Source: Anaerolineae bacterium
GTDB taxonomy: Bacteria > Chloroflexota > Anaerolineae > Epilineales > JAHCIE01
Length of the DNA: 64,000 nucleotides
Direction: 5' to 3'
Assembly (NCBI GenBank): GCA_034431435.1
Contig: DAOUDG010000057.1
Span: 23,955-87,954 of the forward strand
Shown: in pieces, positions 11,382 to 24,025 of the stretch
How positions within the stretch are numbered: the first letter of the stretch is position 1
Layout: every line of letters begins with the position of its first letter
Program-made: the position numbers and the translations under genes
Notes under the pieces: model-generated
Told to the model about the DNA's origin: nothing
The model's input: the letters and a program-made list of their open reading frames with translations, nothing else
The model's database searches: none

Positions 11382-11702
11382 TTAGCAGCACTCGCCAGCC
11401 GCCTCAAGCTCTTGGGTCAATGCTGTCACCTGCTCGCGCAGCCAGCGCAGCGTATCCTCATTGAGGCAGTAGCAACGCGCTGGCCCATCGACCGTGCCCG
11501 CCACGATGCCCGCCTCGCGCAGCACCTTGAGATGCTCGCTGACCGTCGATTGCGCCAGATTGCTGAAGACCACCAGATCGCCGGTGATGCACTGGGGATG
11601 CTCGGCCATATAGCGCACCATTTGCATCCGCAGCGGGTTGCCCAGGGCGCGAAAGAGGGCGACCAGACGCTCGCCATCGTCGGGGAGGGGAACCGTCTTC
11701 AT
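11382..11702 (-). CDS. arsR: ArsR/SmtB family repressor
   Basis: FRALGNPLRMQMV, LAQSTVSEHLKVLREAGIV, RCYC, C-terminal CC. First gene of the ars operon. Confidence 0.92.
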   Translation of the reverse strand: MKTVPLPDDGERLVALFRALGNPLRMQMVRYMAEHPQCITGDLVVFSNLAQSTVSEHLKVLREAGIVAGTVDGPARCYCLNEDTLRWLREQVTALTQELEAAGECC

Positions 11703-11713
11703 TGCCTGACTCC

Positions 11714-11765
11714 ATCGTAAAAAACCGATTATCGTCATTTTACGATAGAAGCGTGTGGTTGTCAA
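11714..11765 (-). promoter_or_regulatory. ars promoter TTGACA-N17-TAAAAT overlapped by an inverted-repeat operator
   Basis: Minus-strand -35 at 11765-11760 and -10 at 11742-11737. The inverted repeat atcgtaaaa (11714-11722) / ttttacgat (11738-11746) covers the -10. Confidence 0.75.
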
Positions 11766-11792: not shown

Positions 11793-12878
11793 CTACAGAA
11801 TCAGCATGGCGTCGCCGAAGCTGAAGAAGCGGTAGTCGCCCGCGATGGCGGCGTGGTAGGCGTCCCACATCAACTCGCGACCGGTGAAGGCCGCGACGAG
11901 CATCAGCAGCGTCGAGCGGGGCAGGTGAAAGTTAGTGATCATAGTGTCCACGGCGCGGAAGGTGAAGCCCGGCGTGATGAACAGCCGTGTCCAGCCGCTG
12001 TAGGCGGCGATAGGCGTGCGCGCGACGGGCGCGGTCAGCGCCGTGAAGTCGCGCGGCTGACCGGGGTCGATGTTGGCAGCGGCCAGCGCCGCCGACTCCA
12101 GCACTCGTACCGCCGTTGTGCCGACTGCCACCACTCGCCCACCGCCCGACCAGGTGGCGTTGATGCGCGCGGCGGTCGCTGCGCCCAACTCGGCCCACTC
12201 ACTGTGCATCACGTGCTGGCGAGCGTCCTCGACCTCGACGGGGCGGAATGTGTCCAGGCCCACGTGCAGCGTCACGAAGGCGAAGTCGACGCCTTGCTCG
12301 GCTAGGCGCGCAATGAGGGGCGGCGTGAAGTGCAGGCCCGCCGTAGGCGCGGCCGCCGAGCCGACGACGCGGTTGTAGACTGTCTGGTAGCGTTCGGGGT
12401 CAGCCAGCTTCGCGTGGATATAGGGGGGCAGGGGCGTCTCGCCCAGACGGTCGAGGAGTGGCTCGATGGGCGCAGCGAAGCGCACCAGTCGCCCGCCTGC
12501 CTCGGTCTCGCCAACGATCTCGGCCGTCGCCGCGCCGTCGCCCAGGACAAGCTGCGTCCCCGGCCGCAGGCGGTGGCCGCGCGCCAGCGTCTCCCACGTC
12601 ACGCCGTCCAGGGGCTTGAGGAGCAGAAGCTCCACCTGGCCGCCGCTGGCCTTGCGGGCGTGGAGGCGAGCCGGCCGCACGCGGCTGTCGTTGGCGACGA
12701 GCAGGTCGCCGGGCCGCAGGAAGGCGGGCAGGTCACGGAAGGTATGGTGGCTGAGCGCGCGGGTGGCGCGATCCACCACCAGCAGCCGTGACGAGTCGCG
12801 TGGCTCGATCGGCGTCTGGGCGATACGCTCGGTGGGCAGGTGGTAGTCGAAGTCGTGGGTGGCGAGGGGCGTAGTCAT
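11793..12878 (-). CDS. queA: tRNA preQ1(34) S-adenosylmethionine ribosyltransferase-isomerase
   Basis: DFDYHLP..RIAQTP, PLPPYI, YQTVY, GSAAAPTAGLHFT, LHVGLDTF, TNFHLPRSTLLML, YRFFSFGDAMLI. Confidence 0.97.
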   Translation of the reverse strand: MTTPLATHDFDYHLPTERIAQTPIEPRDSSRLLVVDRATRALSHHTFRDLPAFLRPGDLLVANDSRVRPARLHARKASGGQVELLLLKPLDGVTWETLARGHRLRPGTQLVLGDGAATAEIVGETEAGGRLVRFAAPIEPLLDRLGETPLPPYIHAKLADPERYQTVYNRVVGSAAAPTAGLHFTPPLIARLAEQGVDFAFVTLHVGLDTFRPVEVEDARQHVMHSEWAELGAATAARINATWSGGGRVVAVGTTAVRVLESAALAAANIDPGQPRDFTALTAPVARTPIAAYSGWTRLFITPGFTFRAVDTMITNFHLPRSTLLMLVAAFTGRELMWDAYHAAIAGDYRFFSFGDAMLIL

Positions 12879-12959
12879 GGGTCAGCCATATGGATGATAG
12901 GGTGGTCCGCAATCCGAACGAAAAGCATAGTCGCTGCCTCGATTACGGTCAACTTCCTG

Positions 12960-12989
12960 TTGACAGGGTCGCGGCGGGTGTGATACAAT
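12960..12989 (+). promoter_or_regulatory. sigma70-type promoter TTGACA-N18-TACAAT with extended TG
   Basis: -35 at 12960-12965, TG at 12981-12982, -10 at 12984-12989. Confidence 0.7.
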
Positions 12990-13020
12990 CTCGGCAACAC
13001 TCAGCAAGGAGGTGACGGCA

Positions 13021-13107
13021 ATGCGCTACGGCTTCATCATCGGCCTGTTCGTTGTTCCGGCCGGCGGTTCCAAGTCCCATAGCTGTAGTGCGCCTGTTCA
13101 CCATTAG
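13021..13107 (+). CDS. 28-aa leader ORF (MRYGFIIGLFVVPAGGSKSHSCSAPVHH), too short for the ORF track
   Basis: Near-perfect RBS aaggaggtga (13006-13015) directly after the promoter. ATG 13021, TAG 13105-13107. Confidence 0.7.
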   Translation: MRYGFIIGLFVVPAGGSKSHSCSAPVHH

Positions 13108-13122
13108 GTTTTGACCTATCCA

Positions 13123-13212
13123 CCGTGGGCGCGCTACCTGCCCACGGCGCTATCGTGCCTGTTGACCTCTTGGGTCTGCCGTGGGCCACCTGTCTGGCGC
13201 CACGGTATTTTT
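13123..13212 (+). terminator. Attenuator-like structure: alternative 1:2, 2:3 and 3:4 hairpins, the last followed by a T-tract
   Basis: Segment 1 ccgtgggc 13123-13130, segment 2 gcccacgg 13140-13147, segment 3 ccgtgggcca 13179-13188, segment 4 tggcgccacgg 13195-13205, then tattttt 13206-13212. Segment 2 is perfectly complementary to both segment 1 and segment 3. Confidence 0.7.
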
Positions 13213-13310
13213 GTGCCCGCGCTCCGTAACATCGCTAACAACCAGCGCGAGCATATCGACACGCTCATGCTGGTCTCAGCATCGCTGTCCTGACTTAGGA
13301 GGACACACGC

Positions 13311-14198
13311 ATGGTGCAAACACGACCGCTTTCTCTCAGCCAGGCCCTGCTGGCTGTCGAGCCGACCGGCCCCCTGGCCCTGGAGGTGCGGGAGGTCGTC
13401 AAGGGGTTCGACGGTCAGCGGACTGGTAGCTGGTGGCAGCGTGTGCGTGGCAAGGCCCCCGCTGCGGCAAGCCAGGTACGGGCTGTCGACCACGTCAGCT
13501 TCTCCGTCCGACGCGGCGAGATCTTCGGCATTCTTGGCCCCAACGGGTCGGGCAAGTCGACCCTGATTCGTCTCATCTCGACCCTGCTCATTCCCGACGC
13601 GGGTCAGATTACGGTCTTCGGTTACGATGTCGAGCGCGATGAGCTGCAGGTGAAGCGTATCATCAACCGCGTCTCCGTTGAGGCGGCCTTCTTCAAGAAG
13701 CTCAGCCCGATGGAGAACCTGCTGTACGCCGGCCGACTATACGGCCTGGATGGCGATACCATTCGCGAGCAGAGCGTCCAGATCCTGACACGGCTGGGGC
13801 TGGAGGGCAAGGCCCTCTACGCGCCGGTCGAGGAGATGTCGCGTGGTATGCAGCAGAAGGTTGCCATCGCGCGCGCGTTCCTGTCCTCGCCGACGCTACT
13901 GCTGCTGGACGAGCCAACGACTGGGCTGGACCCGCGCTCCAAGCGCGAGGTGCAGGCATTTGTCGAGGAATTGCGCGACAGCCACGACGCGACGGTCCTG
14001 CTGACCACTCACGACATGGATGAGGCCGAGGCGCTGTGCGAGCGCATCGCCATCATCGAGGGCGGCAAGATCGTGGCCCTCGATACCCCGGCCGGCCTGA
14101 AGGCCCTGGTGTCCCGCAACGGCCACGAGCCGACGCTGGAAGACGTCTTCATGGCTCTGACGGGCAAGACGCTGGACGACGACGAGGCGGTCGCCTGA
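13311..14198 (+). CDS. ABC exporter ATP-binding protein (DrrA/NodI-like)
   Basis: GPNGSGKST, MSRGMQQKVAIARA, LLLDEPTTGLDP, LTTHDMDEAE. RBS aggagg. Confidence 0.93.
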   Translation: MVQTRPLSLSQALLAVEPTGPLALEVREVVKGFDGQRTGSWWQRVRGKAPAAASQVRAVDHVSFSVRRGEIFGILGPNGSGKSTLIRLISTLLIPDAGQITVFGYDVERDELQVKRIINRVSVEAAFFKKLSPMENLLYAGRLYGLDGDTIREQSVQILTRLGLEGKALYAPVEEMSRGMQQKVAIARAFLSSPTLLLLDEPTTGLDPRSKREVQAFVEELRDSHDATVLLTTHDMDEAEALCERIAIIEGGKIVALDTPAGLKALVSRNGHEPTLEDVFMALTGKTLDDDEAVA

Positions 14199-14234
14199 GA
14201 GGGCGGCCGAGAAACGACCAACGAGGAGCCACGG

Positions 14235-15215
14235 ATGAGCACCGTACTGACTGGCCTGGAGACCCTCACTCTGCGCGCCCCGACGCCGGATGACTTGCCG
14301 GCCGTCTACGAGTTGATTGTCGCCTGCGACATCGCCGACTCTGACACGGTGGATCTGAGCCTCGACGACCTGCGCGATGAGTGGGACGAGCTGGACCTGG
14401 CGCGCGATGCCTGGGTCTTGGTCGACTCCGACGGCCGGGCCGTCGGCTACGGCGCTCTCTTCCACAGGTATCACGTGCGCCTGCACGCCGACGGCTATGT
14501 CCACCCCGATGCGCGGGGCCAGGGTATCGGCACGCGGCTGCAGGAACTGATGGAGGCACGGGCCAGGGAACATGTCCCTCTCGCGCCGCCAGATGCCCGC
14601 GTCGTCCTGCGCAATTCGACCAACGCTGGCGATGCACAGTCGCGGCGACTGCTAGAAGGTCGCGGCTATCAGCCTGTGCGCTACTTCTGGCGCATGGACA
14701 TCGACCTGACCGCGCCGCCGCCCGCGCCAGTGTGGCCGGCGGGCATCACGCTCCGCAACCTGGTGGTCGGGCAGAACGAGTTGGCCCTCTATACCGCCCT
14801 CACCGAGGCCTTCCGCGATCATTGGGGTCATCTGCCCGAGACGTTCGACAGCTGGCGGAAGCGCATCATCGACAAGCCTGACTTCGACCCCGGCCTGTCG
14901 TTCGTTGCCTTCGATGGCGACGAGGTGGCGGGCGCTGTGCGCGGCGGCTACCGAATGGAAGACGGCTGGGTGCAGACGTTGGGCGTGCGTCGTCCCTGGC
15001 GGCGGCGCGGCCTGGGTGAGGCCTTGCTGTTGCAGTCCTTTGGTGAGTTCTACCGTCGCGGCACACGCCGGGTTGGCCTGGGCGTCGACGCGGCCAGTCC
15101 TACCGGGGCGACGCGCCTCTATGAGCGCGCCGGGATGCGTGTCAGCCGCGAGTTCGCCGTCTACGAGATTGAGTTGCGGCCGGGCCGCGACCTGGAGGCT
15201 ATGAGCGAACTATGA
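14235..15215 (+). CDS. Tandem-domain GNAT acetyltransferase (MshD-like architecture)
   Basis: Two acetyl-CoA motif A segments (VHPDARGQGIG; VRRPWRRRGLG), and GVDAASPTGATRLYERAGM. Confidence 0.85.
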   Translation: MSTVLTGLETLTLRAPTPDDLPAVYELIVACDIADSDTVDLSLDDLRDEWDELDLARDAWVLVDSDGRAVGYGALFHRYHVRLHADGYVHPDARGQGIGTRLQELMEARAREHVPLAPPDARVVLRNSTNAGDAQSRRLLEGRGYQPVRYFWRMDIDLTAPPPAPVWPAGITLRNLVVGQNELALYTALTEAFRDHWGHLPETFDSWRKRIIDKPDFDPGLSFVAFDGDEVAGAVRGGYRMEDGWVQTLGVRRPWRRRGLGEALLLQSFGEFYRRGTRRVGLGVDAASPTGATRLYERAGMRVSREFAVYEIELRPGRDLEAMSEL

Positions 15216-16042
15216 CCCTAAACTCTGTCACGACTGAGGTACGCGCCTCATACGCATTTGTCGAACGCAACTTCAACCTGGTCAGGCGCTATTGGGGCTG
15301 GGAAGCCGTGTGGATCATGTACGGCATTGCCAACGCCCTGGCGGTGACCTACATTGGCGCGGGTATGGGCGCCCTCACCGGCCAGACCGTGGACACCGAT
15401 TTCCTGGTCATGTACCTGCTGATCGGTACGGTGGTGTGGCGCTACCTGTCCATCGTCTTCGACTCGCTGAGCGAGATGATCATGTGGGAGCGTTGGGAGG
15501 GGACCATTGAGTACACGTTCATGGCTCCCGTCAGCCGCCTGACCCACATGGTCGGCCAGACCATCTTTTCGGTGGTGTACGGTCTGATGCAGGCGGGGCT
15601 GATTCTGCTGGCGGTGGCCCTGTTCTTCCACATCGACCTGACGCACGCCAACTTCTATGGCGCAACAGCGGTGCTGATGGCGGGTAGTCTGTCCTTCATC
15701 GGCGTCGGCATCATCGCCGCTGTCTTGCCCATGCTCTACCCGGAGCGCGGCGCGCAGATGACTAACTTTGCCCAGGCCGTATTCCTGCTGGCGTCGGGTA
15801 TCTACTATCCTATCACGGTGCTGCCGGAGTGGATGCAGACGATCGCGCGCCTGTCGCCCGCGACCTATGCGTTGATTGGCATACGGGCTGCCCTGCTGGA
15901 AGGCGCATCGCTGGCGACCTTGACGCCTATCATCCTGTTGCTCATTGTGGTCGGGGTGGTCACCATCCCCGTCGGTGTGTTCATCTTCGGCTGGGGCGAG
16001 CGCTACGCCAAGCGCACCGGCAAGTTGAAGCGTAACGGCTAA
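15212..16042 (+). CDS. ABC-2 type permease
   Basis: About six hydrophobic segments, ERWEGTIEYTFMAP, SGIYYPITVLPEW..PATYA. ATGA overlap with the upstream GNAT. Confidence 0.9.
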   Translation: MTLNSVTTEVRASYAFVERNFNLVRRYWGWEAVWIMYGIANALAVTYIGAGMGALTGQTVDTDFLVMYLLIGTVVWRYLSIVFDSLSEMIMWERWEGTIEYTFMAPVSRLTHMVGQTIFSVVYGLMQAGLILLAVALFFHIDLTHANFYGATAVLMAGSLSFIGVGIIAAVLPMLYPERGAQMTNFAQAVFLLASGIYYPITVLPEWMQTIARLSPATYALIGIRAALLEGASLATLTPIILLLIVVGVVTIPVGVFIFGWGERYAKRTGKLKRNG

Positions 16043-16047
16043 CGTTG

Positions 16048-16069
16048 GGGCAGGCCCCCGTGCCTGCCC
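16048..16069. repeat. REP-like hairpin gggcaggc-ccccgt-gcctgccc
   Basis: Perfect 8-bp stem between the permease and the first GNAT paralog. Confidence 0.5.
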
Positions 16070-16138
16070 TGGTGACCAGGAGAATGGCACGCGGACGAAC
16101 ACGGACGAGACGGATAGCCGAGAAGAGGAGAGAGCCCT

Positions 16139-17200
16139 ATGTTGTCTATCGAGACCTTTGACCCTAACCTGGCCAGCGACGACGACTGGCTGGCCTTGAA
16201 TACCTTCCACAACGCCTTGCGCGCCGAGGAGTGGCCGAACGACTTGCCGCTCCCCGCCGAGAAGACTCGCCTCGATATGACAGTCCGACCGCCACAGGAC
16301 CGTAGCTACGTCTGGATCGCGCGTGAGGGCGACGGGCGCATCATCGGCTGGGCGGGGCTATGGATGGAGGAGGCGGAGACCAATCAGCACCTGGGTTGGA
16401 CCACGGTGGGCATCTTGCCCGCCTGCCGGCGGCGTGGGATTGCCTCGCGTCTGCTGGCCGAGGTGGCGCCCGTCGCGCGCCAGCACGGGCGAACGATGCT
16501 GATGGGCGACACCGACGCCGACATACCGGCCGGCGCCGCGTTTGCCGAGGCGCTGGGCGCAACGCCAGGCCTGGCGACGAAGACGAATCAGTTGAACATC
16601 GCCGAGGTAGACCGGGCGATGCTACGGCAGTGGATTCAGCGCGCCCACGAGCGCGCCGAGGGTTTCAGCCTGGGTGTGTGGGAGGGTGCGGCTCCCGACG
16701 AGGACATCGACAACTTTGCCTATCTGCTGGAGTGGTCGTCCAACGACGAACCGCGCGGCGACCTGGCGATCGAGCACGAGACGTTCACCGTGCAGCAGAT
16801 GCGCGACTGGGAAGCCGCACTCCGCGCGCGGCGCTTCGAGCAGTGGATCGCCTGGGTTCGCGACGAGGCGACCGGCCGCCTGGCGGGCTACAGCACGGTA
16901 CGCTGGAACCCCTTTGAGCCGGACCGCCTGTGGCAGGCGGGCACAGGGGTGCTGCGCGAGTATCGTAACAAGGGCCTGGGCCGCTGGCTCAAGGCGGCTA
17001 TGCTGGAGAAGGTGCTGCGCGAGCGGCCAAGCGTGCGGGTCATCCGCACCGGCAACGCCGACACCAACGCGCCGATGCTAAAGATCAACCACGAGCTGGG
17101 CTTCAAGCCGGCCAAGAGCTGGATGCTGTATCAGATCACCATCGATGACCTGGAGAAGACCCTGAGCGCGCACGTACACGCCACGCTGGTGATGGTGTAG
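16139..17200 (+). CDS. Tandem-domain GNAT acetyltransferase, paralog 1 of 5
   Basis: NQHL, ILPACRRRGIA, EPRGDL, TGVLREYRNKGLGRWLKAAML, RTGNADTNAPMLKINHELGF. Confidence 0.9.
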   Translation: MLSIETFDPNLASDDDWLALNTFHNALRAEEWPNDLPLPAEKTRLDMTVRPPQDRSYVWIAREGDGRIIGWAGLWMEEAETNQHLGWTTVGILPACRRRGIASRLLAEVAPVARQHGRTMLMGDTDADIPAGAAFAEALGATPGLATKTNQLNIAEVDRAMLRQWIQRAHERAEGFSLGVWEGAAPDEDIDNFAYLLEWSSNDEPRGDLAIEHETFTVQQMRDWEAALRARRFEQWIAWVRDEATGRLAGYSTVRWNPFEPDRLWQAGTGVLREYRNKGLGRWLKAAMLEKVLRERPSVRVIRTGNADTNAPMLKINHELGFKPAKSWMLYQITIDDLEKTLSAHVHATLVMV

Positions 17201-17213
17201 GAAGGACACGACC

Positions 17214-18272
17214 ATGCAGATCCGAGACTTCGATCCCAAGGGCGCGGGCGACGACGAGATTCGCGCCATCCATGCCTTGCAGAGTCGCCTGCACGCCGAG
17301 ACCTGGCCCGAGGACAATCCGCTGCCCGTGGAGGACACTCTGAGCTGGCTGCGTCACATGCCGGCGATGATCGACTTCCGCGGCTGGGCCGTGTGGGACG
17401 ACGCTGGCGAGAGCGTCATCGCCCGCGCCGACTTTGAGACGTGGCGCACCGACGAGAACCAGCATCTGGGCGAGTTCTCCATCGGCGTCCTGCCGGCGAG
17501 TCGCCGGCAGGGACTCGCAACGCAGCTACTTGGCCCGATCGTCGACGAGGCGAAGGCCCGCAAGCGCCGCCTGCTCCACACTTGGGCCGATGCGGAGAAC
17601 GAGGGGGCGACCGGCTTTCTCACCTGGCTGGGGGCGCGGCCCGGCCTGACGATGACGAACAACCAGCTCGTCCTGGCCGAGGTTGACCGCGTGTTGATGC
17701 GCCAGTGGATCGAGCGCGGCGAGGCGAAGGCGCAGGGCTTTCGGCTGGAGCTCATCGACGGCCCGTACCCTGAGGCCGATATTCAGGCCATCTCGGACCT
17801 GTTCCGCGTGATGAACGACGCGCCGCGTGGCAGCCTGGACGTCGAGGACGAGGAGTACAAGGTCGAGCACATACGCCAGTGGGAAGGGACCATGATCAAG
17901 CGCGGCCTGGAACGCTGGCGCATGCAGGCGCGTCACATCGAGAGCGGCGAGCTGGCCGGCTTCACCGAGGTCGTGTGGAACCCGTACCGCCCCGACATCC
18001 TCCAGCAGTGGGGTACGGGCGTCAAGCCCACGTTCCGCGGCCTGGGCCTGGGTCGCTGGCTGAAGGCAGCTATGTTGGAGCAGGTGCTGCGCGAGCGTCC
18101 TAGCGTGCGCGTCATCCGCACCGGCAACGCCACCAGCAACGGGCCGATGCTGAAGATTAACTTCGACATGGGCTTCAAGCCCTACAAGGCCTTCCAGGTC
18201 TGGGAGGTCGAGACCGAGCAGGTGGCCCGTGTCCTGACCGAGAAGGAGGCCGTGCCCGCCCTTGCCTGGTAA
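17214..18272 (+). CDS. Tandem-domain GNAT acetyltransferase, paralog 2 of 5
   Basis: NQHL, VLPASRRQGLA, NDAPRGSL, TGVKPTFRGLGLGRWLKAAML, RTGNATSNGPMLKINFDMGF. Confidence 0.9.
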   Translation: MQIRDFDPKGAGDDEIRAIHALQSRLHAETWPEDNPLPVEDTLSWLRHMPAMIDFRGWAVWDDAGESVIARADFETWRTDENQHLGEFSIGVLPASRRQGLATQLLGPIVDEAKARKRRLLHTWADAENEGATGFLTWLGARPGLTMTNNQLVLAEVDRVLMRQWIERGEAKAQGFRLELIDGPYPEADIQAISDLFRVMNDAPRGSLDVEDEEYKVEHIRQWEGTMIKRGLERWRMQARHIESGELAGFTEVVWNPYRPDILQQWGTGVKPTFRGLGLGRWLKAAMLEQVLRERPSVRVIRTGNATSNGPMLKINFDMGFKPYKAFQVWEVETEQVARVLTEKEAVPALAW

Positions 18273-18287
18273 GGCGGGCTTTCCATA

Positions 18288-18319
18288 GGGGAGGGGGAAC
18301 GGTCGCGTTCCCCCTCCCC
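18288..18319. repeat. Perfect 13-bp GC-rich hairpin between GNAT paralogs 2 and 3
   Basis: ggggagggggaac (18288-18300) / gttccccctcccc (18307-18319). Confidence 0.55.
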
Positions 18320-18333
18320 CAGGAGTTTATACC

Positions 18334-19410
18334 ATGTATCTGCGCCCCTTCGACTTGAAGACCGCGACGATGAAGGATTGGGAAGCCCTGCACCGCTTCG
18401 ACGCCACCATTCACGCCGAGTTCTGGGGCGACCGCCCGCATCCGCCTTTCGAGCAGTTCGTGCGTGACACCCGTCACGAAGCGCCTTTGTGGGAGACCCG
18501 CCGCTATGCCATGTGGAACGGTCAGGGCGATATCGTTGGCCTGGCCGCCATGTGGATCAGCCGCACGGGCCGCAACAAGCATCTGATGGAAGCCACCATC
18601 GACGTGCTGCCGGAGTGGCGGCGGCAGGGTATCGCCCGCTGGTTGCTGGCCCCCATCGTTACCGTGGCCTGCCGCCACGGCATCCGCCTGCTGAAGGGCG
18701 TCACGAGCAGCGCGTCGCCGGCCGGCGAGGCGTTCATGCGCCGGCTGGGCGGCAAACCGGCCATGACCACATCGACCAACGTTCTGGCCATCGCCGACGT
18801 CGATCGCGCCCTGCTGCGCCGCTGGATCGAGACGGGCGAGACAAGCGCGGCCGACTTCGCCCTCGAAGAGTTGGTTGGCCCGTACCCCGACGACTGGCTG
18901 GGCAGCATCTCGGCTCTGTACGACGCGGCCAACGACGCCCCGCGCGGTGACCTGGACGCCGAGGACGAGCGACGCTCGCCGGAGTTGCTGCGCGAGATGG
19001 AGGCGGTCTCTCTGGCGCGGGGCGACGAGCGCTGGACGATGATCGCGCGCCATCGGCCGACTGGTGAGATCGCCGGGTTCACGGAGACGCACTGGAACGC
19101 GGTCCAGCCGGAGGGCGTGAGCCAGGCGTGGACCGTTGTCCTACCGCGCTACCGAGGCCACGGCCTGGGCCGCTGGCTGAAGGCGGCCATGCTGGAGAAG
19201 GTGTTGCGCCAGCGCCTAACGGTGCAGTGGATCAGCACCGGCAACGCTGACAGTAACGCGCCCATGCTGCGCATCAACTACGAGTTGGGCTTCAAGCCGT
19301 ATCGGTCCTGGATATTCTGGCAGCTTGAGGTAGGGCAGGCGCAGGCCTACCTGGCCGAGAAGGCGGCCGAGCCGCTGGCCCTCGAAGCGCCCGACTCCGT
19401 CCCCGCCTAG
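18334..19410 (+). CDS. Tandem-domain GNAT acetyltransferase, paralog 3 of 5
   Basis: NKHL, VLPEWRRQGIA, NDAPRGDL, VLPRYRGHGLGRWLKAAML, TGNADSNAPMLRINYELGF. Confidence 0.9.
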   Translation: MYLRPFDLKTATMKDWEALHRFDATIHAEFWGDRPHPPFEQFVRDTRHEAPLWETRRYAMWNGQGDIVGLAAMWISRTGRNKHLMEATIDVLPEWRRQGIARWLLAPIVTVACRHGIRLLKGVTSSASPAGEAFMRRLGGKPAMTTSTNVLAIADVDRALLRRWIETGETSAADFALEELVGPYPDDWLGSISALYDAANDAPRGDLDAEDERRSPELLREMEAVSLARGDERWTMIARHRPTGEIAGFTETHWNAVQPEGVSQAWTVVLPRYRGHGLGRWLKAAMLEKVLRQRLTVQWISTGNADSNAPMLRINYELGFKPYRSWIFWQLEVGQAQAYLAEKAAEPLALEAPDSVPA

Positions 19411-19427
19411 CCCGCACAGGAGTTGCG

Positions 19428-20492
19428 ATGCACATCAAATCTTTTGATCCGCAGACGGCGAGCGACACCGAGTGGAGCGCGCTGAACGTCTTCGACAATC
19501 GGAACGAGGCTGAGTTGTGGCCCGATGACCCGCCGGTGTCTGTGACCCGCACCCGTCGCCGCGCGCTGCGCCCCGAGTTTCTGGTGCAGGAGTATTGGGC
19601 GGCGTGGAACGAGGGTGAGACGGAGGTCATGGGCCTGGCGGATGCTCGCTACTGGCTTGCCGAGCACAACCAGCATCTGGTCATGTTTTCCCTGGCTGTC
19701 TTGCCCGCGTTTCGCTGCCAGGGTATTGGTCGCCAGTTCCTGGCCTGCATCGTGGACTTTGCACGCCGCGCCGGTCGCACCGACTTGCTGGACTGGGCCG
19801 CGACAGGGGCGGCGGGCGCGACGGGCTTCGCCCGCGCCGTGGGCGCGAAGGAAGGTATTCTCTCCAGCACCAACCAGCTCGACCTGCGCGACCTGGACCC
19901 GGCGTTGATGCGGGCGTGGCTGGCCCGCGCGCCAGAGCGGGCGTCGGGCTTCGAACTCCGCTACTGGGATGATGGCTACCCCGAAGAGGCCTACGCCGAG
20001 ATGGTCCACGTGCTGGACGCCATGAACGACGCGCCCCGCGATGAGATCTTCGAGGATGAGAAGTGGAACGAGGCGCAGTTGCGCGCTTACGACACGCTGA
20101 TTAAGAGCCAGGGCACGCTACGCTGGACGGCCTATGTTCGCGAGAAGAGCAGCGGCCGCATTGCCGGCTACTCCGAGGTGTTCTGGAATGCGGATCGCCC
20201 AACCATCCTGCATCAAGGCGATACCGGCGTGCTGCCCGCCTACCGTAATCGCGGCCTGGGCCGCTGGCTGAAGGCGGCCATGATTCTGCGCATCCTGGCT
20301 GAGCGGCCTGACGTGCGGTTTGTCCGCACCGGCAACGCCGATTCCAACGTGCCGATGTTGGGTATCAACTATACGATGGGCTTCCAGCCCTATCGGTCGT
20401 GGACGGGCTGGCAGTTGACCGTTGACCAGGCCGAACAATACCTTCTGTCGCGGGGTGTCAGCGTGGATGCGCTCGCACCCCTGGAGGCGTGA
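19428..20492 (+). CDS. Tandem-domain GNAT acetyltransferase, paralog 4 of 5
   Basis: NQHL, VLPAFRCQGIG, NDAPRD, TGVLPAYRNRGLGRWLKAAMI, RTGNADSNVPMLGINYTMGF. Confidence 0.9.
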   Translation: MHIKSFDPQTASDTEWSALNVFDNRNEAELWPDDPPVSVTRTRRRALRPEFLVQEYWAAWNEGETEVMGLADARYWLAEHNQHLVMFSLAVLPAFRCQGIGRQFLACIVDFARRAGRTDLLDWAATGAAGATGFARAVGAKEGILSSTNQLDLRDLDPALMRAWLARAPERASGFELRYWDDGYPEEAYAEMVHVLDAMNDAPRDEIFEDEKWNEAQLRAYDTLIKSQGTLRWTAYVREKSSGRIAGYSEVFWNADRPTILHQGDTGVLPAYRNRGLGRWLKAAMILRILAERPDVRFVRTGNADSNVPMLGINYTMGFQPYRSWTGWQLTVDQAEQYLLSRGVSVDALAPLEA

Positions 20493-21535
20493 TGCGCATC
20501 CTGCCCTTCGACCCCATCACGGCGAGCGCCCACGAATGGGAAGCTGCCTTCGCGCTGGAGCGGCAGAACGCGGCCGAGTTCAACCCCGATGATACCCCAC
20601 TGACCCTGGAGCAGCTTCGCGACCGCTGGCTCAACGAGCCGTCCTTTACTCGCATCCAGCGCTGGCTGGCCTGGGATGACGGGGGCGAGACGGTCTGGGC
20701 GCGCGCCCTTCTGAGACACCACACCACCGCCGAGAATCAGCACCTCGCCGACATGTGGGTCTACGTCGCGCCGGAGTGGCGGCGGCAAGGCCTCGGCGGT
20801 GCGATGCTGCAACCCATCGTCGACGGCGCGCAGGCCGCCGACCGCGGCCTGCTGCGAACCTGGACCCAGAGCATCGCGCCAGCCGGCGAGGCCTTCATGC
20901 GCGTCCTCGGCGCGCACAAGGCGCTGGAGACCTCGGAGAACGTGTTGGACATGGCCGACCTGGACCTGGACCTGATGCGCAAATGGGTCCAGCGCGCCCA
21001 GGAGCGAGCAGCGGGCTACCGGCTGGAGTTTGTCGAGGGCTGGTTCCCTGAGGCGGACCTGCCCGACATCGCCGCTGTCGTCGGCTCCCTCAACGATGCG
21101 CCACGCGGCGAGTTGCAGGTGGAGGACGATGTTCACACGGCGGACACCGTGCGCGCCTGGGAAGCGTCGATTCTGGGGCGGGGTGACAACATCTGGAGCG
21201 TGTTCGCCCGCGAGCCGCAGGTGGGGCGCGTCGTGGGTTGGACGGAGGTTGTCATCGACCCCCACAACCCCCATCGCCTCTACCAGGGCGGGACCGGTGT
21301 GCTGCGCGCGCATCGTAACCTGGGGTTGGGTCGCTGGCTGAAGGCGGCCATGGCCCTCAAGGTGGCAGAGCAGTTGCCCCAGGTCAGGTCGATTCGCACC
21401 GGCAACGCCGACGCCAACGCGCCCATGCTCAGCATCAACACCCGGATGGGCTTCCGCCCCGCCATCGCCGAGGCCGTCTGGCAGCTCGACCGCGAGCAGG
21501 CGCGAGCTTATCTGGCCTCGGCTCGAATGGCCTAG
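20489..21535 (+). CDS. Tandem-domain GNAT acetyltransferase, paralog 5 of 5
   Basis: NQHL, VAPEWRRQGLG, NDAPRGEL, TGVLRAHRNLGLGRWLKAAMA, RTGNADANAPMLSINTRMGF. GTGA overlap with paralog 4. Confidence 0.9.
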   Translation: MMRILPFDPITASAHEWEAAFALERQNAAEFNPDDTPLTLEQLRDRWLNEPSFTRIQRWLAWDDGGETVWARALLRHHTTAENQHLADMWVYVAPEWRRQGLGGAMLQPIVDGAQAADRGLLRTWTQSIAPAGEAFMRVLGAHKALETSENVLDMADLDLDLMRKWVQRAQERAAGYRLEFVEGWFPEADLPDIAAVVGSLNDAPRGELQVEDDVHTADTVRAWEASILGRGDNIWSVFAREPQVGRVVGWTEVVIDPHNPHRLYQGGTGVLRAHRNLGLGRWLKAAMALKVAEQLPQVRSIRTGNADANAPMLSINTRMGFRPAIAEAVWQLDREQARAYLASARMA

Positions 21536-21579
21536 CGAGTCACTTACCAGACAGACAGTGACGGTGGGCGGGGAACTGT

Positions 21580-21744
21580 CAGGGTTCTTTCAAAGTCGTA
21601 GACGGTGCAGAGAGTTCGCCGTGAAACAGGGGCATTCATAGCCGTAGTGGGACGGCAGGAGCTTCCATACGTACTCGACGGATCTGCGCTTCGGCTACTG
21701 CGGGGTGCTGACGAGCACGCTAGCCCGACTTTGAAAGAACCCTG
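21580..21744. mobile_element. 165-bp MITE with 19-bp perfect terminal inverted repeats and a 9-bp target-site duplication (ISAs1-like CAGGG ends)
   Basis: IRL cagggttctttcaaagtcg 21580-21598, IRR cgactttgaaagaaccctg 21726-21744, direct repeat gggaactgt at 21571-21579 and 21745-21753. No transposase inside. Confidence 0.88.
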
Positions 21745-21860
21745 GGGAACTGTGGCCTTTCTTGTGCTTCTTGGAAATCTGGTGCAATATGAACTTGACT
21801 CGGCGCGTTCGTACCTCAATCGATATTGAGGTGGGGGTTGACGTGCTTTGGAGGTAGGAG

Positions 21861-23375
21861 ATGTTGACGCGACTCAGGGTGAGCGGGTTTAAGAACCTAG
21901 TGGATGTTGACGTGCGCTTCGGCCCCTTCACTTGCATTGCTGGCGCAAATGGTGTCGGCAAATCCAACCTGTTTGACGCTATCATGTTTCTTAGCGCTCT
22001 GGCGGATCGACCATTCCTTGATGCCGCACTCTCAGTGCGAGCCGAGGGTGGGAGATATGGTGATGTCCGGAGCCTCTTCACCCGGATCGGAGATCAGTAC
22101 GTCAACGAGATGTCGTTCGAGGCGGAAATGATCGTGCCTGCAAAGGGATTTGACGATCTTTCCCAGCTAGCCAGGGCAAGCACAACCTTTCTCAAGTATT
22201 CCCTTACCCTCCGCTATAGACAAGACGACGAGTTGAGACCGATCGAAGCACTAGAGTTAGCACGTGAAGACCTCGGCTACATCAGCATGGGGGAAGCAAC
22301 AAAGCACCTTCTGTTCAAACCTAGCACGGCCTGGCGCAAGGGAGCCCTGATTGGGCGACGCACATCCCCCTTCATCTCTACCTCAGACCGCGAGCCGCAC
22401 AATATTGAAGTTCATCAGGAAGGTAGACAAGGGCGAAATCGTCGGCTACTCGCCAAGACGCTCCCGCGAACAGTTCTTTCTACTACGAACGCTGCAGAAA
22501 ACCCTACTGCGCTACTCGCACGGCGGGAGCTTCAGTCATGGCGCTTGTTGCAACTCGAACCATCAGCTCTCCGCACTCCCGATGAGCTACGCAATCCACC
22601 AGGACTAGGCACCGATGGGTCCCACCTTCCTGCTACAGTCTATCATCTTGCTCGTGCCTCTACGGCAGTCACGGAAGCAGATGCCGATGTATCGACTCTT
22701 GACATGTATGGTCAGCTAGCCAATCGTCTCGCCGACCTTATCGACGATGTAAGGGAAGTCTGGGTAGATCGAGATGAACAACGTCGCCTACTTACGCTCT
22801 ATCTACGCGATCGAGATGCCACTGCTCATCCTGCACGAGCCTTATCTGATGGGACACTGCGCTTCTTAGCCTTAGCCGTGTTGGAACTCGACCCAGCAGC
22901 ACGTGGGGTCCTCTGTCTAGAAGAACCTGAGAACGGCATTCACCCAGCACGCATTGCTGCCATGCTTCGCCTGCTACAGGATATAGCTACTGACATCAGC
23001 AGACCGGTAGGTTCCGACAACCCTCTTCGCCAGGTCATTATTAACACGCACTCGCCCGCGGTCGTTAGCCAGATTCCTGACGATAGCCTTCTCCTAGCGG
23101 AACTGAGGGAAGTGATTATGCACGGCCAGCGCTTCAAAGGAGTCCACTTCAGCCATCTCAAGGGAACCTGGCGTGATACCGGAGATGATGCCGACGTGGT
23201 GGCTCGCGGAAGACTACTCGATTACCTGAACCCGGTGGAGGACTCTGGCTCGTTCACGCAAGCAGGTTATGGCCGCACACCGGCACGCGGGTACCATGTG
23301 CCTCGCGGCCGCCGTATTGTGGATCGAGAAGATCTGCAACCCTATCTGCTCAATCTTCCCAGAATCGCGGAATGA
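21861..23375 (+). CDS. ABC-type (AAA_21/AAA_15-like) ATPase
   Basis: Walker A GANGVGKSN, signature LSDGTLRFLAL, Walker B/D-loop LEEPENGIHP, H-loop NTHSP. GC is lower than the flanks. Confidence 0.88.
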   Translation: MLTRLRVSGFKNLVDVDVRFGPFTCIAGANGVGKSNLFDAIMFLSALADRPFLDAALSVRAEGGRYGDVRSLFTRIGDQYVNEMSFEAEMIVPAKGFDDLSQLARASTTFLKYSLTLRYRQDDELRPIEALELAREDLGYISMGEATKHLLFKPSTAWRKGALIGRRTSPFISTSDREPHNIEVHQEGRQGRNRRLLAKTLPRTVLSTTNAAENPTALLARRELQSWRLLQLEPSALRTPDELRNPPGLGTDGSHLPATVYHLARASTAVTEADADVSTLDMYGQLANRLADLIDDVREVWVDRDEQRRLLTLYLRDRDATAHPARALSDGTLRFLALAVLELDPAARGVLCLEEPENGIHPARIAAMLRLLQDIATDISRPVGSDNPLRQVIINTHSPAVVSQIPDDSLLLAELREVIMHGQRFKGVHFSHLKGTWRDTGDDADVVARGRLLDYLNPVEDSGSFTQAGYGRTPARGYHVPRGRRIVDREDLQPYLLNLPRIAE

Positions 23376-24025
23376 GCATGCTTCGCTATTCGCTCGTGTC
23401 AGATGGTCCCTCAGATCGGGTCTTGGTGCCACTTTTGACCTGGCTCCTGAGAGATATAGGTGTGAATATATCCATTCAGGCTCAGCATGCCGACATGAGG
23501 CATCTTCCTCGCCCTCCCCGCTCATTGTCTGATCGTATCGCTACCGCTGTCGATCTATATCCATGCGATCTTCTGTTCGTGCACCGCGATGCGGAACGGG
23601 AGGATCTGGAGCATCGCCGTATTGAGATACGGGCAGCGGTAGCTGAAGCACGTCGCCAAGGTGCAATTTCCTCCGTGGTCTGCGTCATTCCTGTGCGAAT
23701 GCAGGAAGCATGGCTTCTGATCGACGAGGAGGCAATTCGCCATGCTGCCGGCAATCGGTATGGCAGGATGCCCCTCAATATGCCACGGATTAGCGGCCTT
23801 GAGACCATTCCTGACCCGAAGGCGGAGTTGTACTCGTTGCTCCGGCAGGCGAGTGGTCTGCAAGGTAGAAGGCTGGACTCGTTCCGAGTGTCGGCCAGTG
23901 CTTATCGCGTAGCGGACGGGATCACTGACTACGCTCCACTGCGCTCGCTGACGGCCTTTCGAGAGCTTGAAGAGGAACTGAGAACAACCCTGGGAGAATT
24001 GGGACTTGTTGGGCTGGCTCATTAA
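23372..24025 (+). CDS. DUF4276-like / TOPRIM-like partner protein of the ATPase
   Basis: ATGA overlap with the ATPase. It has an N-terminal beta-strand plus acidic motif (LVSDGPSD), FVHRDAE, EAWLL and PDPK, resembling DUF4276 proteins as I recall them. Confidence 0.6.
   Translation: MSMLRYSLVSDGPSDRVLVPLLTWLLRDIGVNISIQAQHADMRHLPRPPRSLSDRIATAVDLYPCDLLFVHRDAEREDLEHRRIEIRAAVAEARRQGAISSVVCVIPVRMQEAWLLIDEEAIRHAAGNRYGRMPLNMPRISGLETIPDPKAELYSLLRQASGLQGRRLDSFRVSASAYRVADGITDYAPLRSLTAFRELEEELRTTLGELGLVGLAH

Follow-up and report, generated by a model that had tools for sequence, protein, structure and literature searches.

An uncultured Chloroflexota (Anaerolineae) bacterium carries an operon in which the two subunits of an ABC-2 exporter and six tandem-domain GNAT acetyltransferases are placed behind a conserved transcription attenuator. 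The operon genes, eight ORFs in all, occupy positions 13311-21535 of the plus strand of the window, i.e., the whole 64,000-nucleotide stretch of DNA analysed. The association of pump and acetyltransferases recurs among relatives and is not due to chance. We give about even chances to the reading that this is a detoxification operon which combines efflux with acetylation and is switched on by stalled ribosomes.

Organisation of the operon

The genes are co-directional and follow the order ABC ATPase, GNAT_A, ABC-2 permease and then the paralogous tandem GNATs G1-G5:

12960..12989, plus strand, sigma-70-type promoter (TTGACA, 18-nt spacer, TACAAT, extended -10 TG)
13311..14198, plus strand, ABC transporter ATP-binding subunit, 295 aa (PF00005, 1.6e-31)
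14235..15215, plus strand, GNAT_A, tandem GNAT of MshD-like architecture, 326 aa, between the exporter subunits
15212..16042, plus strand, ABC-2 type permease, 276 aa (PF01061)
16046..16067, plus strand, hairpin GGGCAGGC-CCCCGT-GCCTGCCC without a U-run, in the permease-G1 gap
16139..17200, plus strand, G1, Orf14-like tandem GNAT, 353 aa
17214..18272, plus strand, G2, Orf14-like tandem GNAT, 352 aa
18334..19410, plus strand, G3, Orf14-like tandem GNAT, 358 aa
19428..20492, plus strand, G4, Orf14-like tandem GNAT, 354 aa
20489..21535, plus strand, G5, Orf14-like tandem GNAT, 348 aa, its start overlapping the G4 stop codon

The intergenic distances along the operon are 36, -4, 96, 13, 61, 17 and -4 nt. 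The order, strand and tight spacing of the eight ORFs given in the original prediction were confirmed, as was the 4-nt ATGA overlap of the permease with the preceding GNAT gene (15212-15215). The promoter matches the consensus at 11 of 12 positions and is the sole strong promoter-like site upstream of the operon; its -35 and TGTGnTAnAAT elements are kept in orthologous leaders. The promoter, the short gaps or overlaps and the Shine-Dalgarno-like sequence preceding each of the eight genes make 13311-21535 one operon. The gap between the permease and G1 amounts to 96 nt here versus 12 nt, none or an overlap with the first array GNAT in relatives, and the hairpin within it may serve as a processing or stabilising element or as a partial terminator.

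The count of six tandem GNATs stands, with the small correction that a seventh GNAT of a different type (Rv0428c_C) is located at 24056-24844, separated from the G1-G5 array by an inserted two-gene island.

Leader ORF and transcription attenuator

The leader upstream of the ATPase gene comprises the following elements:

13007..13107, plus strand, Shine-Dalgarno sequence (AAGGAGGTGA; AAGGAGG) and 28-codon leader ORF (13021-13107), encoding MRYGFIIGLFVVPAGGSKSHSCSAPVHH followed by a stop
13021..13034, plus strand, segment S (ATGCGCTACGGCTT), the start-codon region, complementary to segment 0
13085..13094, plus strand, segment 0 (GTAGTGCGCC), located within the leader ORF at its 3' end
13123..13147, plus strand, hairpin 1:2 (CCGTGGGC-loop-GCCCACGG)
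13178..13212, plus strand, hairpin 3:4 with U-run (GCCGTGGGCCACC..GGCGCCACGG TATTTTT), intrinsic terminator

The partner of segment 0 is S or, alternatively, segment 1 together with the hairpin 1 loop (13128-13137, GGCGCGCTAC), and the second of these helices, P0, is the antiterminator. Segment 3 (13179-13186) has an alternative partner in segment 2 (13140-13147). The helices available to the leader RNA make up a chain whose members exclude one another: S:0, P0 (0:1), 1:2, 2:3 and 3:4 with its U-run. In most relatives hairpin 1:2 is also followed by a U-run and constitutes a first terminator there.

This architecture is shared by 52 distinct leaders located ahead of orthologous exporters. Helices 1:2 and 3:4 are 98% paired across the leaders, and P0 and 2:3 taken together are 84% paired, versus 37-50% in slid controls; P0 together with 2:3 was also the consensus structure picked by RNAalifold. 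Double changes were found at five of the ten P0 pairs, and the pairing of segment 0 displays compensatory changes between clades (GTAG/CTAC versus GCAG/CTGC). The duplex of segment 0 with hairpin 1 has a family median of -21 kcal/mol (z = -3.4), and the S:0 duplex, which also covaries, has a family median of -18 kcal/mol (z = -2.6) and a value of -19.6 kcal/mol (z = -3.2) in the window. The majority of the stems show no variation, and the covariation evidence is moderate, coming mainly from P0 and S:0. The leader, which had been described as attenuator-like, is a genuine conserved transcription attenuator of alternative helices ending in a terminator hairpin with a U-run.

The leader ORF stops 11-24 nt past the start of the segment 0 core in all 46 leaders with a callable ORF, whatever the frame. 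At least seven leaders (L115, L116, L124, L136, L144, L146 and L151) read the conserved block in another frame and end in SQCAFR, SQCACV or ALCPSPG before the stop, which places the conservation at the RNA level. The N-terminal part of the peptide is unconserved, and the C-terminal motif (L)PCRSAP or SRSAPVH is common to many leaders. The peptide is regulatory and is not the product.

Exporter subunits

The best NCBIfam matches of the exporter subunits are drrA and drrB. The system resembles the DrrAB/NodIJ type in keeping the ATPase separate from the permease, an ABC-2 protein of the six-helix type, and in having no binding protein, but neither subunit reaches its subfamily cut-off (255 bits against 312 for the ATPase with TIGR01188 drrA; 50 bits against 223 for the permease with drrB). 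ATPase orthologues adjoin the permease in relatives. Identity of the permease to the three orthologues aligned from elsewhere is 68-82%, and it spans 59-96% over the 80 loci retained from a metagenome scan. The protein search yielded a permease family of at least 7403 members, the named ones all belonging to Chloroflexota, and no solved structure was matched by the permease sequence at E ≤ 0.01.

Acetyltransferases

Each of the six GNAT proteins of the operon contains two Acetyltransf_1 stretches. GNAT_A shares the two-GNAT fold of MshD, the Sphaerobacter protein 3TT2 (5.5e-78), glucosamine N-acetyltransferase and Eis, and aligns to the MshD model nearly end to end. It is not MshD, however, because its score of 58.9 bits falls short of the cut-off of 163.1, and this assignment was rejected. 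Eis proteins match only weakly and, unlike the operon GNATs, possess a third domain. By sequence comparison, the closest characterised relative of GNAT_A is MAB_4324c (MAB_4324/7Q3A, 7.3e-37), a direct WhiB7 target that is induced by ribosome-targeting antibiotics and acetylates amikacin weakly (PMC10727445). All matches to the named resistance acetyltransferases AAC, STAT and ArsN lie far under the family cut-offs.

The closest solved relative of G1-G5 (the TG family) is Orf14 of the Streptomyces clavuligerus clavulanic-acid cluster (PDB 2WPW/2WPX), with the same two-GNAT architecture and a full-length match (5e-40, about 27% identity, TM-score 0.77-0.85). The N-terminal domain of Orf14 binds acetyl-CoA, and a catalytic role has been proposed for its C-terminal domain (PMC8788787). 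The TG N-terminal domain is nearest to PAT, YncA and the tabtoxin resistance protein, which act on amino-acid analogues, and structural comparison places another tandem GNAT, VipF, near G1. G1-G5 are positional orthologue groups retaining the same order across relatives, and these groups are ancient.

Exporter-GNAT association in relatives

In 13 independent loci the genes of the two exporter subunits have a GNAT gene wedged between them. Within 2 kb of members of the permease family, GNAT-like genes occur at about 6.5 times the expected density (42 observed versus 6.5 expected). Among the 22 fully flanked exporter loci, a GNAT is adjacent in nine and lies within 3 kb in 16, with about a quarter of the loci having none within that distance. 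TG arrays or a single TG gene stand 3' of the exporter in a clade of Anaerolineae loci (L001/L005, L004, L006-L011, L036 and L051, the permease match of L051 being weak). The wedge, the enrichment and the collinear arrays bear out the earlier suggestion that exporter and GNATs share a function.

In other lineages, single-copy TG genes often adjoin MFS_3 efflux pumps (13 loci) and RHH_8 regulators (10 loci). The exporter also has neighbours that encode HAD hydrolases, hydrolases of the PF00144 and metallo-beta-lactamase-fold types, a SAM methyltransferase and an MFS transporter, a set of functions that typically goes with detoxification.

Proposed mechanism

Untranslated leader RNA would fold into S:0, 1:2 and 3:4, leading to termination. 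A ribosome reaching the stop codon would mask segment 0, so that 1:2 and 3:4 would form and transcription would likewise terminate. A ribosome stalled in the middle of the ORF after opening S would leave segment 0 free to form P0 with segment 1, followed by 2:3; in this state the terminator would be absent and RNA polymerase would continue into the operon. The leader thus probably turns the operon on upon ribosome stalling. Ile, Val, Met, Asn, Ser and Gly are modestly overrepresented in the stall window, and the specific signal cannot be named because no single amino acid stands out across the leaders.

The ABC-2 pump would export a small molecule that bears an amine and is harmful, or else the N-acetylated form of this molecule, with natural translation inhibitors and antimetabolites of the amino-acid or aminoacyl type as the likeliest candidates. 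GNAT_A and the five diverged TG proteins would use acetyl-CoA to N-acetylate different compounds or different amino groups. If Orf14 and MshD are a guide, catalysis would fall to the conserved C-terminal GNAT domain, and the more variable N-terminal domain would have a specificity or structural role. Outward transport and acetylation, like the inducer and the substrates, are predictions.

Alternative explanations

The inducible acetylate-and-export resistance system put forward in the original prediction is the reading best backed by the genomic context and the kinship with MAB_4324c, and is putative. A permease conservation of 59-96% suits a single conserved physiological substrate at least as well as it does variable xenobiotics, and the five ancient collinear paralogues could equally make up a complex or catalyse successive steps of a pathway. 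The pump could then export one conserved endogenous metabolite made by the GNATs, such as an N-acetylated amino acid, peptide, polyamine or cell-envelope precursor, with the attenuator tying its production to translational status (growth rate, amino-acid supply). The size of the permease family, its confinement to Chloroflexota among named members and the biosynthetic role of Orf14 (PMC8788787) agree with this housekeeping function. Nevertheless, it is rather unlikely: the exporter-adjacent accessory genes differ among lineages, which is not expected of a fixed pathway, TG genes elsewhere partner another efflux family, MFS_3, the linked genes include no ligase, synthetase or other biosynthetic gene, and switching induced by stalling follows the logic of stress and resistance or of amino-acid biosynthesis, not that of overflow export. 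As for the signal, the helix logic of a mid-ORF stall causing read-through is that of the trp, his and leu attenuators, and the leader may sense a shortage of charged tRNA, responding to starvation or aminoacyl-tRNA synthetase inhibition instead of ribosome-binding drugs. The modest stall-window enrichment and the kinship of the TG N-terminal domain with enzymes acetylating amino-acid analogues point in the same direction; such a classical amino-acid attenuator is nonetheless improbable, given that the stall-window sequences diverge widely without a conserved single-codon run and that the downstream genes are not biosynthetic.

It is still harder to credit that the GNATs modify ribosomal proteins, translation factors or aminoacyl-tRNA under stress, adapting or arresting translation, with the pump as a merely co-controlled neighbour. 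The operon would be stall-induced by the proposed logic, there is weak similarity to RimI (1e-10 to 3e-7, under the RimI cut-off), and VipF, the structural neighbour of G1, is a Legionella acetyltransferase effector that reportedly targets eIF3 (PMC10936415). The 13-locus wedge and the recurrent TG-MFS pairing, however, indicate coupling to small molecules, and the nearest relatives, Orf14 (with a substrate that is only proposed), MshD, glucosamine N-acetyltransferase, MAB_4324c and Eis2, are all tied to small molecules. The other proposal of the original prediction, a RiPP-like cluster whose 28-aa precursor is acetylated by the GNATs and exported by the ABC-2 transporter, had to be given up as very improbable. 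A well-translated small ORF does stand immediately upstream of the operon, and its C-terminal motif recurs, but the conservation is that of RNA: the frame of the block shifts in relatives, the block base-pairs with the start region and hairpin 1 with covariation, and the N-terminal part of the peptide varies. Terminator hairpins separate the ORF from the operon, and no protease, cyclase, peptidase-domain transporter or other maturation enzyme was found. To our knowledge, ABC-2 pumps are not the usual exporters of RiPPs.

Comparison with known systems

The original prediction held the architecture to be undescribed. The leader has no Rfam match and no description of the operon architecture was found in full-text literature on related topics; within these sources the claim holds.

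The detoxification operon proposed here has its closest regulatory parallel in bmrB-bmrCD of Bacillus subtilis, a member of the class of antibiotic-responsive leader-peptide attenuators (ermK, vmlR, lmo0919; Term-seq class). There too a short leader ORF, alternative stem-loops and an intrinsic terminator precede ABC transporter genes. The BmrCD transporter is induced by protein-synthesis inhibitors via the leader peptide BmrB and alternative stem-loops, and drug induction requires translation of the leader (PMC4191407; review PMC5418344). The two systems have no sequence relationship, and induction of the present one is predicted. The pumps also differ, since BmrCD is a fused heterodimer of half-transporters and the present pump is of the ABC-2 type with separate ATPase and permease. 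Compared with bmrB, the present leader is longer, has six pairing segments (S, 0, 1, 2, 3 and 4) and two tandem hairpins, and is conserved across a whole class of Chloroflexota; unlike bmrCD, the operon co-transcribes modifying enzymes with the pump.

Orf14 is a lone gene in a biosynthetic cluster with a substrate that is only proposed, whereas G1-G5 form an exporter-linked five-member array with no beta-lactam biosynthesis genes nearby. The combination of GNAT acetyltransferases with efflux transporters is also found in the WhiB7 regulon of mycobacteria (members compared: eis2, MAB_4324c, ABC and MFS transporters), where it is switched on by ribosome-targeting-antibiotic stress and includes, in MAB_4324c, a tandem-repeat GNAT homologous to GNAT_A, although the contribution of this enzyme to mycobacterial resistance is small. 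The WhiB7 genes are scattered and trans-activated by a transcription factor, whereas here a single operon is placed behind a cis-acting RNA attenuator.

Organisation of the Exporter–GNAT Operon

The run of eight exporter and acetyltransferase (GNAT) genes proposed in the original prediction was confirmed as long open reading frames (ORFs) at the predicted coordinates on the + strand, with Pfam domains assigned as follows.

Genes of the exporter–GNAT operon
13311-14198, +, ABC ATPase (Pfam ABC_tran)
14235-15215, +, GNAT_A, the tandem GNAT wedged between the exporter subunits (two Acetyltransf_1 stretches)
15212-16042, +, ABC-2 permease (Pfam ABC2_membrane)
16139-17200, +, tandem GNAT G1 (two Acetyltransf_1 stretches)
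17214-18272, +, tandem GNAT G2 (two Acetyltransf_1 stretches)
18334-19410, +, tandem GNAT G3 (two Acetyltransf_1 stretches)
19428-20492, +, tandem GNAT G4 (two Acetyltransf_1 stretches)
20489-21535, +, tandem GNAT G5 (two Acetyltransf_1 stretches)

In gene order, the intergenic gaps are 36, −4 (ATGA), 96, 13, 61, 17 and −4 nt, and a GGAGG-like Shine-Dalgarno sequence is located 5′ of every start codon of the operon. The sole strong promoter-like site on the + strand in 12000-23000 is TTGACA-18-TACAAT with an extended TG (12960-12989, 11/12 matches). The 96-nt gap between the permease gene and G1 contains an 8-bp GC-rich hairpin without a U-run (GGGCAGGC/GCCTGCCC, 16046-16067), which might tune how much pump is made relative to the GNATs; it is absent in relatives, in which the two genes overlap or lie 12 nt apart. 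A cluster of ORFs antisense beside the permease was set aside as spurious-looking, being Arg/Pro-rich and overlapping real genes.

The nearest genomes belong to uncultured Anaerolineae (Chloroflexota), and one locus of a metagenome-assembled genome is 94% identical in G1. In this relative (L004, 5271-6117), the ATPase gene is broken up over several reading frames and the leader ORF carries a frameshift, which reflects either poor assembly or a decaying copy.

Structure and Conservation of the Leader

A 28-codon leader ORF (13021-13107) lies behind AAGGAGGTGA, 3′ of the promoter. Between this ORF and the first gene is the terminator of the window, a hairpin at 13178-13206 followed by TTTTT at 13208-13212; relatives possess one or two GC-rich hairpins with U-runs. 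The alignment of 52 distinct leaders, taken upstream of the first pump-module gene of relatives and metagenome loci, revealed a common layout comprising, from 5′ to 3′, a TTGACA/TAnAAT promoter, a Shine-Dalgarno sequence, an ORF of about 26-36 codons (callable in 46 of the 52) and two hairpins. Hairpin 1 has the form GGCCGTGGGC-loop-GCCCACGGCC, usually with Ts next to it, and hairpin 2 repeats the stem. A search of Rfam 15 gave no match in the whole window at gathering thresholds and none in 12900-13330 at E ≤ 1.

The 3′ end of the leader ORF carries a near-invariant nucleotide block (GTAGTGCGCC at 13085-13094 in the window, GTCGCAGTGCGCC elsewhere), which encodes ...CRSAP... or ...SRSAP... 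in most leaders. Another frame of the block is used in L115, L116, L124, L136, L144, L146 and L151, where it is read as ...SQCAFR-stop, ...SQCACV-stop or ...ALCPSPG-stop. Since identical nucleotides are read in different frames, the sequences indicate that the constraint on this block acts mainly on the RNA. An arrest peptide with the C-terminus ...SRSAPVHR-stop was dropped as the main reading, because the frames differ and the block is explained by RNA pairing; a contribution of the peptide beside RNA pairing is possible. The macrolide-type motif R/K-x-R/K was found by eye in about half of the leaders and not in the window leader, and its count is confounded by a conserved hairpin inside the leader ORF. 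A small conserved hairpin of this location, additional to hairpins 1 and 2, CUCCGC...GCGGAG, encoding ...RLRE/D.GG..., was noted in L093, L095, L116, L124, L136, L138 and L146. It may be a transcription pause hairpin synchronising the ribosome and RNA polymerase.

The second reading originally offered, a RiPP-like cluster with the 28-aa peptide as the precursor, was rejected: the block is kept as RNA, its frame shifts, and the N-terminal parts of the peptides are unrelated. Besides, terminators part the ORF from the operon, and no maturation enzymes or peptidase are linked to it. The operon contains only ABC-2 subunits and GNATs, and the genes adjoining it in relatives code for hydrolases, HAD enzymes, MFS transporters and a methyltransferase.

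A Predicted Stalling-Induced Switch

The helices formed by the pairing segments of the leader (S, 0, 1, 2, 3 and 4), as well as their mutual exclusivity, were computed. Segment 0 is the near-invariant block in the leader ORF. Its pairing with hairpin 1 (5′ arm plus loop) gives helix P0 (0:1; median −21 kcal/mol, z = −3.4, with z < −2 in 87% of leaders), and its pairing with the first ORF codons gives helix S:0 (median −18 kcal/mol, z = −2.6). Both helices covary, with GTAG/CTAC in some clades and GCAG/CTGC in others. Pairing in the 52-sequence alignment is 98% for helices 1:2 and 3:4, and 84% for the combination of P0 and 2:3 versus 37-50% for slid partners; changes on both sides occur in 5 of 10 P0 pairs, and the RNAalifold consensus corresponds to P0 with 2:3. 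The four competing helices have similar per-sequence energies, from −17 to −33 kcal/mol. The stop codon of the leader ORF always lies 11-24 nt past the start of the segment 0 core, i.e., within P0. The attenuator-like leader predicted upstream of the operon is supported computationally by the ORF with its ribosome-binding site, the intrinsic terminator and the competing helices, including a computed antiterminator (P0 and 2:3) exclusive with 1:2 and 3:4.

A simple four-segment attenuator, with segment 1 masked by a ribosome stalled at the stop codon, was rejected, since the footprint of this ribosome ends just before segment 1 and covers segment 0. In the six-segment scheme, when no ribosome is present, S:0 would form first and leave segment 1 free, so that 1:2 and 3:4 would form and transcription would terminate. 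Most relatives have a terminator in hairpin 1:2, and that of the window is 3:4. A ribosome reaching the stop codon would cover segment 0 and likewise lead to termination. A ribosome that has opened up S and stalled in the approximately 15 codons before segment 0 would leave this segment free to capture segment 1 as P0; segment 2 would then pair with segment 3, no terminator would form and the operon would be transcribed. Such stall-dependent read-through is the logic of classical amino-acid attenuators. The leader is probably an attenuator induced by ribosome stalling.

As to the signal, the shortage of one amino acid is kept as a rival to a general slowing of elongation, but the sequences of the stall window vary widely among leaders and no amino acid is dominant. 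For this reason, the reading of the leader as a sensor of slowed elongation in general is favoured.

Acetyltransferases of the Operon

GNAT_A aligns nearly end-to-end with the MshD model at 58.9 bits, against the TIGR03448 equivalog cut-off of 163.1, and G1-G5 score at most 27 bits with the same model. Mycothiol synthase identity is thus ruled out for all six. Many Orf14-like homologues (P0005, P0013, P0017 and others) bear the JGI label 'mycothiol synthase', and since their scores are far below the MshD cut-off, these names are probably a systematic over-annotation. The resistance acetyltransferases AAC(6′), AAC(3), STAT and ArsN were ruled out as well (18-27 bits versus NCBIfam cut-offs of 125-420). 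The closest solved relatives of GNAT_A are 3TT2 from Sphaerobacter (5.5e-78) and 7Q3A (7.3e-37), the latter being MAB_4324 of Mycobacterium abscessus. MAB_4324c is a direct target of WhiB7, inducible by ribosome-targeting antibiotics, and shows weak acetylation of amikacin and modest protection against it (PMC10727445).

G2-G5 are 39-42% identical to G1, and the five proteins share 50% identity (core 61%) in the C-terminal domain versus 36% in the N-terminal domain. The acetyl-CoA motif R/Q-x-x-G-x-G/A is kept in both domains. All of G1-G5 carry R97 and G100 (RRQGIA) in the N-terminal motif and R276, G279 and G281 (R-N-x-G-L-G) in the C-terminal one without variation, and the motif glycines and R97 are likewise invariant across 43 homologues. 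The N-terminal domain of the family profile has weak matches to enzymes acetylating amino-acid analogues, namely phosphinothricin acetyltransferases, YncA and the tabtoxin resistance protein. The profile of G1-G5 matches Orf14 (PDB 2WPW), a protein of the clavulanic-acid cluster, over its full length (5.2e-40, residues 8-333 to 12-334), and the top structural neighbour of the AlphaFold2 model of G1 (pLDDT 95) is also Orf14/2WPW, with a TM-score of 0.77-0.85, followed by VipF, MAB_4324, 3TT2, glucosamine N-acetyltransferase, MshD and Eis2. G1-G5 share with Orf14 the architecture of two GNAT domains in a chain of about 330-360 aa, with full-length homology. In Orf14, a structural role is proposed for the N-terminal acetyl-CoA and a catalytic one for the C-terminal domain, and the substrate of Orf14 itself is unproven (PMC8788787).

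Pump Proteins

The ATPase is best matched by drrA (255 bits, TIGR01188 cut-off 312) and the permease by drrB (49.8 bits, TIGR01247 cut-off 223). A DrrAB daunorubicin-type exporter was ruled out, as both subunits are under the subfamily cut-offs; the membership in the broader ABC_tran and ABC2_membrane families holds. The permease family comprises at least 7403 proteins at E ≤ 1e-20, and the named members among the matches listed are all from Chloroflexota. The window permease is 68-82% identical to three aligned orthologues, and a sequence-profile comparison with solved structures gave no match for it at E ≤ 0.01.

Linkage of GNATs and Exporters in Other Genomes

Two neighbourhood surveys were conducted, one around the array GNATs and the other around the permease. 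The former, using the profile of G1-G5 (the Orf14-like tandem GNAT family, hereafter TG) against one genome per species, yielded 405 TG relatives in Chloroflexota, Armatimonadota, Deinococcota, Bipolaricaulota and others, the majority of which stand singly, away from any ABC-2 pump. Between one and five TG genes directly 3′ of an ATPase–permease pair were found in an Anaerolineae clade comprising the loci L001/L005, L004, L006-L011, L036 and L051, where the permease match of L051 is weak and the contig of L006 is cut, with TG genes 3′ of the permease. Locus L012 possesses six TG genes, and its contig ends before any exporter. The TG tree placed each of G1-G5 together with the gene of the same position in L004, L005, L006, L011 and L012. 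These positional orthologues share just ~50-55% identity, which indicates that the array is an ancient ordered set rather than the product of a recent amplification. The age and order of the five paralogues suggest fixed, distinct roles, whether on different substrates or positions or as subunits of a complex.

The permease-centred survey, in which an alignment of permease orthologues was compared with metagenome contigs, yielded 459 relatives, with 80 loci retained (59-96% identity). The order ATPase–GNAT–permease is present in L083, L089, L110, L115, L121, L129, L134, L138, L140 and L160, and the order permease–GNAT–ATPase in L150, L159 and L161. Both subunits, flanked by at least 1 kb to either side, are present in 22 loci; of these, a GNAT is adjacent in 9 and within 3 kb in 16. 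The density of GNAT-like genes is 2.06 per 10 kb up to 2 kb away from the pump genes versus 0.32 per 10 kb beyond 4 kb, or 42 genes observed near the pump versus 6.5 expected; these counts are approximate because the iterated GNAT profile may hold a few false members (e.g., very long ORFs), and the Poisson P for the enrichment is too strong because the loci are not phylogenetically independent. The association of GNATs with the exporter therefore recurs, as seen from this density and from the 13 loci with a GNAT between the subunits.

Other recurrent neighbours of the pump are single or double HAD hydrolases, a PF00144 beta-lactamase-like hydrolase, a metallo-beta-lactamase-fold hydrolase, a SAM methyltransferase and an MFS transporter. 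In other lineages, single-copy TG genes often have genes for MFS_3 efflux proteins (13 loci) and RHH_8 regulators (10 loci) as neighbours. RHH_8 (PF17723) is a small regulator, located directly beside TG in L026, L033, L037, L049, L050, L055, L058, L067 and others. The set of TG, RHH_8 and MFS_3 in other Chloroflexota may be a second, differently regulated acetylate-and-export module. With TG beside MFS_3 and GNATs beside ABC-2, the pairing of N-acetyltransferase and efflux recurs with two unrelated pump families.

Flanking Genes

The following genes were detected on both sides of the operon.

Genes flanking the operon
11382-11765, −, ArsR-type regulator, beyond queA
11793-12878, −, queA, divergent from the leader promoter (Queuosine_synth in the orthologous L001 gene)
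21861-23375, AAA_21/AAA_15 ATPase (PADLOC HEC-01A, 6e-98)
23372-24025, DUF4276 protein (HEC-01B, 1e-28)
24056-24844, seventh GNAT, of a different type (Rv0428c_C and Acetyltransf_1)
24902-25627, GntR/UTRA regulator, 3′ of the seventh GNAT

The order queA–leader–pump is kept in the called genes of L001 and apparently in L004 and L007-L011, as judged by shared upstream sequence. About 100 nt past G5, at 21637-21649, there is an exact second copy of the 13-nt leader block in the version of the relatives (CATAGCCGTAGTG), with ~0.08 chance matches expected and no hairpins alongside; it may be a relic of a leader or a recombination junction. The genes at 21861-24025 constitute a two-gene candidate anti-phage system. 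Their local G+C is 0.56 versus ~0.66 in the surroundings, and the HEC-01-like pair has the appearance of an inserted island that separates G5 from the following GNAT. In L001, a close relative, the counterpart of the seventh GNAT is located directly 3′ of the TG array with a 4-nt overlap, so the seventh GNAT may originally have been a member of the operon.

Proposed Function of the Operon and Comparison with Known Systems

The operon would N-acetylate harmful amine-bearing compounds that impair translation and then export them. Such detoxification is where the regulatory logic, the recurrent pairing of GNATs and pumps and the detoxification-like accessory genes agree, and MAB_4324c, as a member of the WhiB7 regulon, behaves in line with it as well. 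The inducible acetylate-and-export resistance originally proposed is in this respect supported by genomic context, from which the function is predicted. A housekeeping role, with a single acetylated metabolite of the cell as the exported cargo, is retained as a rival, mainly because the pump is very highly conserved. Weighing these points, we consider the full model of acetylation and export of toxic amines evenly balanced between holding and failing.

The claim that the architecture is undescribed holds within the searches made. As a kind, the leader-peptide-attenuated efflux/resistance operon is already known. No description was found of the six-segment attenuator family of Anaerolineae-type Chloroflexota (Rfam and full-text literature searches), nor, in the full-text literature searches, of an ABC-2 pump with a tandem GNAT between its subunits or of a collinear five-member array of Orf14-like tandem GNATs. 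To our knowledge, few regulatory RNAs and resistance mechanisms have been experimentally worked out in Chloroflexota. If the predictions are true, abundant environmental bacteria of a whole class carry a conserved six-segment leader-peptide attenuator that could join the RNA family databases and that serves as a self-contained sensor of translation stress. In the pump family with its variable GNATs, hydrolases, HAD enzymes and methyltransferase there would be a store of antibiotic-inactivating activities yet to be characterised, and the five ancient GNAT paralogues would present a natural experiment on the evolution of specificity in the poorly understood Orf14/MshD-like fold. Many homologues now labelled "mycothiol synthase" would also need correction in databases.

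Among known systems, bmrB-bmrCD of B. subtilis encodes an ABC transporter that is inducible by protein-synthesis inhibitors and needs translation of its leader (PMC4191407; PMC5418344). The logic predicted here matches that of antibiotic-responsive leaders of the bmrB-bmrCD type. A joint reading, which we put forward as speculative and rather unlikely as a whole, is that an undescribed attenuator family across a Chloroflexota class senses ribosome stalling on behalf of a conserved intrinsic-resistance pump, and that five anciently diverged, collinear tandem GNATs were recruited in this lineage as a fixed multi-enzyme set, each acetylating its own amine position or its own class of natural products that inhibit translation. 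The operon would then be a cis-encoded resistome in one transcription unit, the functional equivalent of the mycobacterial WhiB7 regulon.
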